Positions 6,789 to 16,794 of a stretch of 64,000 nucleotides of DNA are shown here, one piece after another. Numbering within the stretch: the first letter of the stretch is position 1; each line of letters opens with the position of its first letter. Both the position numbers and the translations under genes were made by a program. Source of the stretch: Vulcanimicrobiota bacterium (GTDB lineage Bacteria; Vulcanimicrobiota; Vulcanimicrobiia; Vulcanimicrobiales; Vulcanimicrobiaceae); the NCBI GenBank assembly GCA_963714015.1, contig OY970223.1, positions 1,888,001 to 1,952,000 of the forward strand, in the 5' to 3' direction. The notes under the pieces were generated by a model. The model saw nothing but the letters and a program-made list of their open reading frames with translations. It was not told the origin of the DNA and made no database searches.

Positions 6789-6861
6789 GTTCGGGATGTG
6801 CCGCGCTTGACGGGCCCCGGCCCGCGATTTGCGCACATTGGTCCAGAGGGCAAAGCGAGTT

Positions 6862-7510
6862 ATGGCAATGACCCATCCTATCCCGGATGGACTCGACTAC
6901 CACGAGCGGGCTGATGAGGATTTGGTCGCGACCGCTAAATCGGGCGACAACCTCGCGATGGAATTCCTGCTCAATAAGTACAAAAATTTCGTCCGCATCA
7001 AAGCGAAGAGTTACTTCTTAATCGGGGCCGACCGCGAAGACATCATCCAAGAGGGCATGATCGGTCTGTACAAAGCCGTTCGCGACTTCAAGGCGGACAA
7101 GCTTTCCAGTTTTCGCGCCTTTGCGGAGCTGTGCATCACGCGTCAGATCATCACCGCGATCAAGACGGCGACCCGTCAGAAGCATATTCCGCTCAACCAA
7201 TACATTTCTCTGAACAAGCCGATCTATGACGAGGACAGCGAACGCACGCTGCTGGACGTCATGGCTTCGCAAAAGACGTCCGATCCCGAAGAGCTCGTGA
7301 TCAATCAGGAAGTCTCTCAGGACATCAAGGAACGCATTCAGGAGAATCTCTCGGAACTGGAGTCTCAGGTGCTGCTCTCGTATCTCGAGGGAAAGAGTCT
7401 ACCAGGAGATGGCGCGCGACTTGGGCCGGCACGTGAAGTCGATCGACAACGCGCTGCAGCGCGTCAAACGTAAGATCGAGAAGAACCTCTCGGAGATCGA
7501 ACTTCCGTAA
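6862..7510 (+). CDS. sigH: RNA polymerase sigma factor SigH (frameshift near 7398)
   Basis: YFLIGADREDIIQEGMIGLYKA, FAELCITRQIITAIKTATRQKHIPLN. The shifted frame continues GKSYQEMA...KSIDNALQRVKRK to TAA at 7510. Confidence 0.93.
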
Positions 7511-7636: not shown

Positions 7637-7789
7637 TTAGAAGCGGATGTAATGCACCGCGTGAGCAAACAGATACAGAAGAATTAGAATAACGAATACG
7701 ATTGCCGCCGCGCGCAACAGGCAGCCGGCAACACGCACCGCGATCACCACGAGAACGATGACGACCAGTACGAAGATGAGTGTCGTCAT
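7637..7789 (-). CDS. Small hydrophobic membrane protein (50 aa)
   Basis: MTTLIFVLVVIVLVVIAVRVAGCLLRAAAIVFVILILLYLFAHAVHYIRF*; ATG overlaps the upstream TGA (ATGA). Below the ORF-track cutoff. Confidence 0.65.
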   Translation of the reverse strand: MTTLIFVLVVIVLVVIAVRVAGCLLRAAAIVFVILILLYLFAHAVHYIRF

Positions 7790-8184
7790 GAGGCGCCGGA
7801 ACCGGCCTGCCGATCGTCTTCGTAGTGTTCGAAGGCCGGTCGCCCCTCGTCGATAACTAAACGGTTGACGATAGTAGTGTAGAGCGCCTCGCGATCGGCG
7901 AGCGGATCGATAACGAAGGCTTCGGTCGCTTTTTCGTCGCTTTGCGGATCGATCACGACGGTCACTCGCCGGCGCGCACAGACGTCGAGGCAGCTCGTGC
8001 TGATCGCCCGCACCCTACCCCAATACCCGTCTTCCTTGAGCCGTTTTTTGAGCCAGTCGCGCAAATGGAAGTCGCCGATCTCCGCAGCTTTGTCGGGATC
8101 TTCTTCGGGAATGCGTTCCTTGCAGCAACGCTCGCACACCAGCACGAGACCGGAATTCGTCCATTTGGGGGTTACGGGCTGCAT
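7786..8184 (-). CDS. Thioredoxin-like [2Fe-2S] ferredoxin-domain protein
   Basis: VLVCERC ... TSCLDVC cysteine pattern. Confidence 0.6.
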   Translation of the reverse strand: MQPVTPKWTNSGLVLVCERCCKERIPEEDPDKAAEIGDFHLRDWLKKRLKEDGYWGRVRAISTSCLDVCARRRVTVVIDPQSDEKATEAFVIDPLADREALYTTIVNRLVIDEGRPAFEHYEDDRQAGSGAS

Positions 8185-8239
8185 GCTTTCTTTCACTAGA
8201 AGTTGTGGAGGCCCGGCCGGGCGGGCCTCCGATTCCGCA

Positions 8240-8322
8240 AGCCGACGGCCGGATTCGAACCGGCGCGCTCTTTCGAGTCCTCATTACAAGTGAGGTGCGT
8301 TCAACCGCTCCGCCACGTCGGC
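8240..8322 (-). tRNA. tRNA-Thr(UGU) with long variable arm
   Basis: GCCGACG/CGTCGGC acceptor, CCTCA-CT-TGT-AA-TGAGG anticodon arm, GCCGG-TTCGAAT-CCGGC T arm, U73, 14-nt variable region; CCA not encoded. Confidence 0.88.
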
Positions 8323-8557
8323 GTGAAGCCACGGTCTCTTACCGGGGGGGATAGATCATACCTCCCCGGCTCCGGAACGGATTTTCGCAGCCGCCGCGCC
8401 TAACGGCCATCTCGACCGCGATCGGAACGCGCGCAAAGTCGCGCCGTTCAGTCATCCGGCTGCGCACGAGATTGTGCGCATATTTAATAGGGCGATCCGT
8501 TTGAGTGACGCGCTGCAAAGTAAAAGAATTGCATTTTCGGGTCGAGAATTTAACGGC

Positions 8558-9025
8558 ATGGACAACGCGCAGCAACTACAGCTCCGGCGTGCCGGCCCGA
8601 GCGATCTGGAAACGCTGCTCCCGCTGGTTGGGGCTTACCGGGCGTTTTACGGGCAAGAATGTGATACCGGCAAAGAGCGCGGGTTCGTGGAGTCGCATCT
8701 GCGCGCCGGAACGTCGATCATTTACTTGGCCTGCAGTACCGAAGCGCACGGAGATATAGCGGGTTTCATTCAGTTGTTTGCGGCCTATTCGACCGTGCAT
8801 CTCGCGCCGTCGTGGATACTGGAAGACCTCTTTGTTACGCCCGCAGCTCGGGGGCGCGGTGTCGCCACGGCGCTCTTGGAACGTGCGCTGATGCATGCGC
8901 GCAGTAGCGGAGCATGCGCGATGTTTTTGGAGACCGCAATCGAGAACGTCACGGCGCAGCGCGTATACGAGCGAGCCGGCTGGGCGCGGGAGGGGCGTTT
9001 TCTTAAATACAACGCCCCACTTTAG
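8558..9025 (+). CDS. GNAT-family N-acetyltransferase
   Basis: LEDLFVTPAARGRGVATALL, NVTAQRVYERAGW. Confidence 0.88.
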   Translation: MDNAQQLQLRRAGPSDLETLLPLVGAYRAFYGQECDTGKERGFVESHLRAGTSIIYLACSTEAHGDIAGFIQLFAAYSTVHLAPSWILEDLFVTPAARGRGVATALLERALMHARSSGACAMFLETAIENVTAQRVYERAGWAREGRFLKYNAPL

Positions 9026-11481: not shown

Positions 11482-11569
11482 GGGTAGGTGGCCGAGTGGT
11501 TAAAGGCAACAGACTGTAAATCTGTCCAGCTAACGCTGTACGCTGGTTCGAATCCAGCCCTGCCCACCA
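11482..11569 (+). tRNA. tRNA-Tyr(GUA)
   Basis: ACAGA-CT-GTA-AA-TCTGT, long variable arm, A73, CCA encoded. Confidence 0.96.
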
Positions 11570-12512: not shown

Positions 12513-12587
12513 GCCGTTGTAGCTCAGTGGTAGAGCATCTCCTTGGTAAGGAGAAGGCCACGGGTTCAATCCCCGTCAACGGCTCCA
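12513..12587 (+). tRNA. tRNA-Thr(GGU)
   Basis: GCCGTTG acceptor, TCTCC-TT-GGT-AA-GGAGA, short variable loop, U73, CCA. Confidence 0.96.
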
Positions 12588-15975: not shown

Positions 15976-16794
15976 ATGCCGTTTGTCGACTTTCACACCC
16001 ACACGACGGTTTCGGACGGCGTGTGGCAGCCGCACGAACTCTTCGCGTACGTCCGCGAAAGCGGGATCGAAGCATTCTCGCTGACGGATCACGACACGAT
16101 GGACGGCTATCCGCTTCCGGCGGACATTGCGCCTCGTGCAGTGCCGGGAATGGAAGTCGACACCAAGTGCAACGGCGTCACCGCTCATCTGCTCGTTTAC
16201 GGAATCGATTCGCTGGAGGCGCCGCTGCTGCAGTTTCTGCGGCGGCAGCGCGCCGCGCGACGGGAACGAATGGCCGACATGCTCGAGAAGCTCGATGCTA
16301 AGGGCATTCATTTAGACATGTCGGACGTCGAGGCTCAGGCCGGTAAAGCGGTGAGCTGAGGCCGGCCCCATTTGGCGCGCGCTTTGGTCGCGCGAGGCGT
16401 CGTTAAGGATACGCAGGAGGCGTTCGACAAGTATCTCGCGGACGATCAAGAGGCGTACGTGTCGCTCGATCGGCTCGACTCTTGGCGCGCGATCGAACTG
16501 GCTCACGAGTCCCGGGCCGTCGTCAGCGTCGCCCACCCATGCCGGCTGCGGGAACCGGCGTCACTCGAAGTGTTGCGCTTGGCCGGCGTTGACGGAGTCG
16601 AAGTACTGCATCCCTCCGCAGATACCTCAGCGCAAGCGGAACTGCGCGAATACGCCGCGCGGCACGATCTGCTCGTAACGGGCGGCAGCGATTTCCATGC
16701 ACCGGACAAAGGCTACACGCCCGGCGTACAGCTCGAAGCAAACCATGTCGAGCGGCTATTCGCTGCTGTAGCAGCGGCAAGAATACCCGCTTAA
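15976..16794 (+). CDS. PHP-domain phosphoesterase (frameshift near 16357)
   Basis: DFHTHTTVSDG, LTDHDT, GRPHLA across the shift, VAHP, TGGSDFH. Confidence 0.85.

Follow-up and report, generated by a model that had tools for sequence, protein, structure and literature searches.

A long-armed tRNA-Thr(UGU) gene in Vulcanimicrobiaceae and its probable replacement by endonuclease-plus-tRNA cassettes

Long variable arms are confined, in the available text of four sources (PMC7609411, PMC9976931, PMC4033280, and PMC13433404), to the tRNAs for leucine, serine, bacterial tyrosine, and selenocysteine and to the nematode nev-tRNAs. The accessible sections of the first three, as reviews, treat tRNA class as fixed for each isotype over deep time. 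The nev-tRNAs resemble the gene described here in joining a long variable arm to the anticodon of a class I amino acid (PMC4033280 and PMC3333845, available parts). According to the same parts, however, nev-tRNA-Gly has leucine identity, mistranslates, and is weakly expressed, whereas the present tRNA appears to have threonine identity, with ACA read as threonine, and is the sole reader of that codon. Bacterial class II tRNA-Tyr(GUA), the neighbour in the ancestral operon, shares with it a 3-bp D stem, a 13.22 mismatch, G9, G15-C48, and the spacing of the variable arm, but the threonine tRNA differs in its UGU anticodon, U73, C2-G71/C3-G70, and a shorter variable stem. Class I tRNA-Thr(UGU), represented by the thrU gene of E. 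coli and by this family's short alleles, has the same identity elements, locus, and codon; it differs in that its variable region measures 4-5 nt and its D stem 4 bp, against a 14-nt paired arm and a class II D arm here.

A second group of related systems concerns endonucleases. T4 SegB cuts in tRNA genes and drives the inheritance of the tRNA region (PMC2330249, accessible part), within the wider practice of homing (PMC3943268 and PMC10448857, likewise in their available parts). In phage T5, the HNH genes hegA/C/D sit between the tRNA genes. The loci described below resemble both, in that an endonuclease gene adjoins tRNA genes and likely spreads with the flanking tRNA alleles. They differ from SegB in lying on a bacterial chromosome, with one endonuclease family per isotype and with cutting that is predicted; furthermore, the scars lie at the anticodon loop, whereas the SegB site is in the T arm.

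The window, that is, the whole stretch of 64,000 nucleotides that was analysed, belongs to a genome (G000) of one contig, 3.56 Mb in length, with a marker completeness of 89.6%. The reading that best joins the results is probably that of an intact class II allele of tRNA-Thr(UGU), standing at a locus that has been replaced repeatedly by an endonuclease cassette. No description of a class II tRNA-Thr and none of chromosomal endonuclease-tRNA cassettes was found in a search of mostly open-access literature. The present analysis adds a check of ACA decoding in this genome, two further endonuclease families along with their negative controls, and two scars.

Structure of the tRNA-Thr(UGU)

The gene and the features assigned to it are as follows.

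8240..8322, minus strand: tRNA-Thr(UGU) in a class II frame (ARAGORN, tRNA-Thr(tgt), 83 nt; Rfam RF00005), the only ACA reader of the genome
8265..8278, minus strand: 14-nt variable arm, A-CTC-GAAA-GAG-CGC (one unpaired base, 3-bp stem, GAAA loop, three unpaired bases)
8297..8313, minus strand: class II D arm (3-bp stem GCG/CGC, G13.A22, G15 with C48)
8286..8288, minus strand: anticodon UGU (ARAGORN and sequence)
8355..8360, minus strand: TATGAT hexamer, putative -10, 32 nt before G1 (sequence)
8207..8230, minus strand: 9-bp GC hairpin directly 3' of the tRNA, without a U run (sequence)

An earlier sequence-only reading had described an 83-nt gene with a UGU anticodon, G1-C72/C2-G71/C3-G70, U73, and the 14-nt variable region, and all of these were present; the strand, which it had not given, was minus. 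The match of 8240-8322 to RF00005 scored 63.2 bits against a threshold of 29 (E 2.3e-11) and covered the full model (1-71). The acceptor stem of 7 bp begins with the three pairs named, CCA is not encoded, and the tRNA has G9, a 5-bp anticodon stem, and the anticodon loop CUUGUAA. Both marks of class II were found, namely a variable region of at least 10 nt with a stem-loop, and a 3-bp D stem with 13.22 unpaired and a larger D loop.

ARAGORN called 47 tRNA genes in G000, including Thr(CGU), Thr(GGU), four Ser, five Leu, and Tyr; a second tRNA-Thr(UGU), for which the earlier reading had advised a check, was absent from them. The acceptor and T arms are about the same as those of the genome's own Thr(CGU). 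The resemblance to the tRNA-Tyr frame that had been pointed out (3-bp D stem, G13.A22, and G9) was borne out, and by eye the geometry of the variable arm, with one unpaired base on the 5' side and three on the 3' side, equals that of the G000 tRNA-Tyr. In all four Ser tRNAs the arm measures 19 nt and leaves one 3' base unpaired, against two in the Leu tRNAs (both by eye). Identity to the G000 tRNA-Tyr was 63%, no higher than to several other tRNAs; judged from the sequences, the likeness to tRNA-Tyr is one of geometry only. A chimera with the genome's own tRNA-Leu(UAA) was considered and rejected: the two have the GAAA hairpin in common, but the geometry, the Levitt pair, and an identity of 63% disfavour it.

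The MFE z-score of the tRNA was only -1.97, so that the structural support was drawn from covariation. Thirty-seven distinct 83-nt homologues with 14-nt arms, chosen by us from bacterial and viral matches, were aligned; the search pattern fixed the anticodon loop, the T loop, and the start of the acceptor, so that the invariant UGU in the alignment is built in, and left the pairing of the variable stem free. This stem was paired in 37/37 homologues, with changes on both sides in all three of its pairs. Across all stems, 99.4% of 851 cells were paired, and shuffles and slid registers fell far below this value. In the 61 family loci compared below, 13.22 was unpaired in 32 of 33 long alleles and in 8 of 28 short ones, which indicates that the D arm and the variable arm change together. 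The variable arm is thus confirmed as a genuine conserved structure that is kept through compensatory changes in bacterial and viral homologues, and the proposal of a structurally novel tRNA-Thr holds. An independent public run, X2, contains the same 83 letters on one contig (depth 2.3), where the sequence on either side differs; accordingly, the arm is no assembly error, as the earlier reading had argued against an indel.

The signals proposed outside the tRNA fared less well. The TATGAT hexamer exists at 8360-8355, but a promoter scan gave 0 promoter-like sites at the tRNA and the hexamer sits within an imperfect inverted repeat, which leaves it as a possible -10 element only. Likewise, the GC hairpin is present (8230-8207), but it was not scored as a terminator by the scan and has no U run.

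Locus, occurrence, and allele turnover

The following neighbours were used in comparing loci.

6829..7473, plus strand: sigH, synteny anchor (locus comparison)
7786..8196, minus strand: orfX, a small, conserved Cys-containing ORF, found after the tRNA in most family loci
8474..9025, plus strand: GNAT acetyltransferase gene, divergent neighbour (locus comparison)
11482..11569, plus strand: tRNA-Tyr(GUA), class II tRNA used for comparison, its arm equal in geometry (ARAGORN)
12513..12587, plus strand: tRNA-Thr(GGU), class I, the second most variable tRNA of the region (allele comparison)

The gene is the thrU orthologue, in inverted orientation relative to the ancestral order thrU-tyr-gly-thrT, which G006, G060, and G071 retain. 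In most of the 61 loci, tRNA-Thr(UGU) lies between sigH and the Tyr-Gly-Thr cluster, with orfX after the tRNA. No match for orfX was found in NCBIfam, Pfam, or PHROG. It was discarded as a partner of the long arm, because it follows long and short alleles equally, and was treated as a locus marker for the same reason. The GNAT gene was discarded as well, being next to both classes and missing at many long-arm loci. The segment from sigH to tRNA-Tyr has been inverted more than once, and G169 (L285) differs from the remaining g81 loci in that its tRNA-Thr/orfX block keeps the ancestral orientation. An inverted repeat (8461-8480) immediately precedes the GNAT gene; it has a terminator-like call on the plus strand and may be an operator.

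The tRNA-Thr(UGU) pattern matched 275 of 301 genomes of Vulcanimicrobiaceae. Judged by their coordinates, 56 of the 150 family matches listed were long alleles (a further 130 matches lie beyond these), with 12/18 in g73 and 29/44 in g81; the 150 include two unpublished genomes, G150 (long) and G126 (short), without which the count is 55/148. Apart from this and one further tally, the results use published genomes. The earlier reading had named as a refutation that long-armed tRNA-Thr is already catalogued as common in this lineage: common it is, by these counts, and no paper cataloguing it was found in the literature search described above. In a GTDB scan, at least 119 matches to long-armed Thr(UGU) were obtained, of which about 11 were chance or archaeal intron cases as judged by eye; labels among the matches listed were Vulcanimicrobiota for 42, none for 32, and Kiritimatiellota for 18, the rest being scattered. 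An IMG/VR scan yielded the long-armed form in no fewer than 120 viral contigs; each of these 120 fits the Thr register and none the Tyr register. Because both patterns demand G57 and no position 17, these counts are lower bounds. With GGU or CGU in place of UGU, the pattern returned 14 matches in a complete scan, all CGU, one of them no tRNA. Gut Kiritimatiellia carry the long-armed form as well, with hardly any variation in the allele. In an evenly drawn sample of the phylum to which the Kiritimatiellia genome belongs, there was one long allele among 101 matches, that genome itself, which indicates that the form is patchy and no general trait.

Several forms outside the main pattern were seen in these scans. 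The archaeal tRNA-Thr(UGU) matches L158, L170, and L233 resemble intron-bearing genes, not long arms. In G247 (L293) and G197 (L295), a class II-type D arm occurs with a 5-nt variable region, and these may be intermediates between the classes. Unpairable A/C-rich variable regions of 11-12 nt were seen in G077 (L324), L163, L183, and many viral loci such as L031 and L055; they make up a second kind of long variable region, common to phages and a few chromosomes.

Long or short alleles occupied one syntenic locus, even between sister species, independently of the species tree. The allele of the window was 93.9% identical to that of G017 (genus g16) and 92.7% to that of G009 (g8), and its congener G001 has a 7-nt variable region. 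In g81, 25 of 26 Thr(UGU) alleles were distinct, with a mean identity of 0.753, compared with 0.969 for Tyr, 0.979 for Gly, and 0.888 for Thr(GGU). For Thr(UGU), allele distance was unrelated to species distance (rho 0.04), against a rho of 0.66 for Tyr, 0.63 for Gly, and 0.36 for Thr(GGU). A FastTree tree of 57 rows was built on cysE, cysS, rlmB, and sigH, omitting G008, G009, G077, and G187, in which genes were missing. It required 20 class changes, 17 of them forced by the starred branches, which is not below the number for shuffled labels (mean 19.5); the count is no unbiased rate, since the 61 loci were chosen to mix both classes, and it does not distinguish gain from loss.

Other tRNAs of the same genomes were conserved: identity was 1.000 for Lys(UUU), 0.992 for Asn(GUU), 1.000 for Thr(CGU), and 0.992 for Arg(UCU), and Thr(CGU) was identical in 6/6 g81 genomes. 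As Thr(CGU) shares the synthetase and is invariant, a tolerant ThrRS is insufficient to explain the turnover. His(GUG) was as variable as Pro(UGG) (0.873), with the invariant neighbour Arg(UCU) between them. Across L379-L385, His(GUG) is hypervariable, and in three genomes its T loop is unusual.

That an essential single-copy tRNA switches class between sister species suggests that ThrRS, EF-Tu, and the ribosome accept either frame. The locus offers dozens of natural allele pairs on which identity rules and RNase resistance could be studied. It also warns against trusting tRNA genes as phylogenetic markers in every case and against equating long-arm isotype scores with recoding.

Endonuclease genes and scars beside variable tRNAs

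Directly 5' of tRNA-Thr(UGU) and on the same strand, 29 of the 61 loci carried a gene of one HNH family (HNH in both Pfam and PHROG), whole in 20 and broken or partial in nine; it adjoined no other tRNA in these loci. The gene stood beside 13 long and 16 short alleles, its presence being independent of class. Presence or absence at the same locus among relatives, together with frequent decay, is a trait of homing endonucleases. The protein had no meaningful match in the PDB. A profile of the Thr-linked HNH matched 16 of 120 viral loci (78 of the 120 have at least 500 nt upstream) and none of the 18 Kiritimatiellota-labelled long-arm loci. A search of the present genome for the family found no member. 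One short stretch may be a remnant.

8378..8410, minus strand: possible eroded C-terminal tail of the HNH gene (10.2 bits, p ~0.0015 against 2000 shuffles, nhmmer E 0.019)

Its distance to the tRNA equals that of the HNH tail in G009 and G210; the match is weak and, as the stretch was first spotted by eye, post hoc, and G156 and G243 score alike.

Of 53 loci, 20 had a gene of a second family, PDDEXK_5 (PF11645), directly before Thr(GGU) on its 5' side, for example at 6139-6660 of L319, and in some it was split; the call was checked by Pfam in four of the 20. It matched PDB 2OST with an E value of 6.7e-6 and is free-standing here, with no intron seen. We take 2OST to be I-Ssp6803I, a PD-(D/E)XK homing endonuclease whose target is presumably the anticodon region of tRNA-fMet. 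In 11 whole genomes, four PDDEXK_5 matches occurred in three genomes, all of them 5' of Thr(GGU); the present genome has no such gene before its Thr(GGU). An endonuclease linked to Pro(UGG) was predicted beforehand from the variability of that tRNA. When the ORF listings were inspected, a third family (PHROG 2255, HNH, E 4e-31; no Pfam match) was found 5' of Pro(UGG) in five of seven genomes, whole in three and split in two. The reading frame of the following members ends at the 5' end of the tRNA.

L380, 1510-1941: Pro(UGG)-linked family
L384, 1609-2040: Pro(UGG)-linked family
L385, 1484-1972: Pro(UGG)-linked family

No endonuclease gene was seen in the ORF listings before the invariant tRNAs Thr(CGU) (0/6) and Asn (0/7). 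The variable His(GUG) had none of its own.

Two loci carry scars. In G085 (L423, 1527-691), a fragment that matches nucleotides 1-27 of the window's tRNA letter for letter extends into an anticodon stem and breaks off within the loop. Next come an HNH gene of 171 aa, which is intact, a full-length class I Thr(UGU) that has a self-complementary stem of its own, and orfX. This order, with a complete second tRNA, indicates that a long allele of the window's type was disrupted and fully exchanged, with no fusion of the two. In G434 (L426), the 5' half of a long allele ends just after the anticodon, followed by HNH and a slightly different full long allele; L199 has the same arrangement, and the two were counted as one case. 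The leaders of both tRNA copies in L199 are alike, as if a cassette had been laid over an older one. A family-wide scar pattern gave eight matches in 348 genomes, of which two were real scars and six had no tRNA or HNH nearby, with seven matches in the control; the 61 chosen loci contained none. We infer that the order of the elements would agree with cutting at the anticodon loop and mending with donor DNA, the scar being kept where 5' homology failed.

These findings suggest the following course of events. If ThrRS reads the acceptor pairs and the anticodon only, the body between positions 9 and 48 would be free to vary. The HNH protein would cut the resident tRNA-Thr gene within the anticodon arm, and repair from incoming DNA would bring in the HNH gene together with its own, necessarily cut-resistant, tRNA allele. 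The HNH gene would then decay and disappear, as may have happened in this genome, leaving the allele behind. Repeated rounds would favour alleles unlike the resident one, and the frame of the Tyr type may be the most distant that still works. On the pattern known for T4 SegB (PMC2330249, as far as its accessible text goes), we favour this model, and endonuclease-plus-tRNA cassettes are, on balance, the likely main cause of the turnover.

The main failure of the cassette model is the lack of co-phylogeny between HNH and tRNA alleles: in 27 genomes, the partial correlation was 0.03 (permutation p 0.32), and G294 and G316 have similar HNH proteins beside tRNAs of different class. Fast reshuffling could account for this result, which is not counted as support. 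The full proposal goes further. In it, intron-less cassettes of Vulcanimicrobiaceae, with one family per isotype, would cut the tRNA at the anticodon, swap it wholesale, and drive the repeated switching between classes I and II, and threonine would join the canonical long-arm identities of bacteria and phages as the fourth; for all of this together, we regard the case as evenly balanced. If the cassette model is true, it would represent an intron-less form of homing that acts on an essential RNA gene by bringing a replacement, with three candidate endonuclease families of predictable targets.

Other explanations and amino-acid identity

The strongest alternative supposes that the cutting of tRNA-Thr(UGU) by toxins or by enzymes of defence favours anticodon stems and arms of altered shape, initially in phages, and that the endonuclease genes merely ride along or carry the alleles. 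In the accessible parts of the respective papers, P2 OLD acts chiefly on tRNA-Thr(UGU), and phage alleles with altered anticodon stems resist it (PMC12445682); Thr(UGU) is a prime target of AriB, with His(GUG) and Pro(UGG) as probable minor ones (PMC12409363); and HepS cuts tRNA-Thr (PMC13043305). Such selection would account for the variable His(GUG), for which the cassettes offer no linked gene, and agrees with the anticodon stems being most diverse in Thr(GGU) (12 types in 22). It may also explain the phage alleles in the viral contigs, at least 120 in number. Against it, the AriB targets Lys(UUU) (1.000), Asn(GUU) (0.992), and Thr(CGU) (1.000) are invariant or nearly so here, and it predicts neither three endonuclease families at variable tRNAs nor DNA scars in the anticodon loop. 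Furthermore, a search for the family-type alleles in viruses turned up no copy, the best viral identity being 73%, and a direct phage donor was rejected on this result. INPHARED gave three weak matches, the best at 75%, and metagenome scans for the window's allele gave none. The Thr(UGU) of phage T5 is a class I tRNA of 75 nt, so that the T5 rescue experiments say nothing on long arms. Escape from RNases is compatible with cassettes; as the explanation of the turnover, we consider it possible and rather unlikely.

A less probable explanation, which we doubt, is relaxed selection, in which a rare codon and a tolerant ThrRS permit drift and ordinary recombination, and endonuclease genes just gather beside tRNAs. 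ACA is indeed infrequent (2.2 per 1000 in 51,192 aligned codons), and the lack of HNH-tRNA co-phylogeny would be expected. However, the stems are kept by compensatory change, Arg(UCU) and Arg(CCU) are conserved although they too read rare codons, and the abundant-codon reader Thr(GGU) varies too while Thr(CGU), with the same ThrRS, does not. A difference of the whole scaffold between sister species is, moreover, beyond drift.

The sequence-only reading had offered as a further choice a tRNA of dual identity, in which SerRS (or TyrRS or LeuRS) also charges through the arm and ACA is partly mistranslated in the manner of nev-tRNAs. The available text of PMC5389517 describes a long arm with G73 or U73 as a SerRS signal in allo-tRNAs, with which U73 and the long arm are compatible. 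In G000, tRNA-Ser(UGA) (C1:3426179-3426269) has U73 instead of G73. Moreover, with fast allele turnover the placement of codons could lag behind a new identity, and low-level mischarging would be invisible in alignments. The identity elements point elsewhere. The threonine set of G1-C72, C2-G71, and G35-U36, as given in the accessible parts of PMC9976931 and PMC13433404, is present, and under the sets of PMC9976931, as far as that text is available, threonine alone is satisfied. For serine, C2-G71 stands in place of G2-C71, and the 3-bp arm with three unpaired 3' bases is unlike the 19-nt arms of the four tRNA-Ser; U73 and G35 replace the A73 and U35 of tyrosine; and U73 and G15-C48 replace the A73 and A15-U48 of leucine.

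Codon columns agree with these elements. The 111 ACA codons of G000 that could be aligned to four short-allele relatives were assessed at sites where at least three relatives agree. ACA was opposite threonine at 36 of 38 such sites, the other two being one Gly and one Ser; by the same test, ACC was opposite threonine in 224/244 and ACG in 316/357. At conserved columns of the 61 loci, ACA corresponded to threonine in 34/36 cases in long-allele genomes and 42/47 in short-allele genomes. Across five Kiritimatiellia genomes, the codons exchanged for ACA encoded threonine in 32/33 cases, although some antisense frames passed the filter, and the ACA sites behaved alike in frames that we take to encode RpoB and ribosomal proteins. 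Comparison of Kiritimatiellia with G000 yielded just five ACA sites (two Thr, two Ser, one Arg), a tiny sample, and with class I Vulcanimicrobiaceae only one usable pair. The ACA codon that the earlier reading had placed at the conserved Thr of L11 was present as stated. ACA was aligned with serine at 1/38 sites here, at 1/36 in long-arm relatives, and at 0/33 in Kiritimatiellia; charging by the arm over the anticodon is therefore not supported by the codon columns as far as these alignments tell, and dual identity or mistranslation appears very improbable. The genome has one ThrRS and one SerRS, and a special ThrRS was ruled out, as the enzyme is single-copy and aligns in the ordinary way to PDB enzymes. 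As judged from these comparisons, tRNA-Thr(UGU) is very probably a functional threonine tRNA that is likely charged with threonine and likely reads ACA.

Finally, an assembly or indel artefact or a pseudogene has a negligible probability: the assembly does seem frameshifted nearby, where the sigH frame (6829-7473) is seemingly lost near its end and a PHP-family-like gene (15976-16794) is split into two ORFs, but the gene is the single UGU tRNA of a one-contig genome, its 83 letters recur in run X2, and alleles 93-94% identical occur in two other genera.
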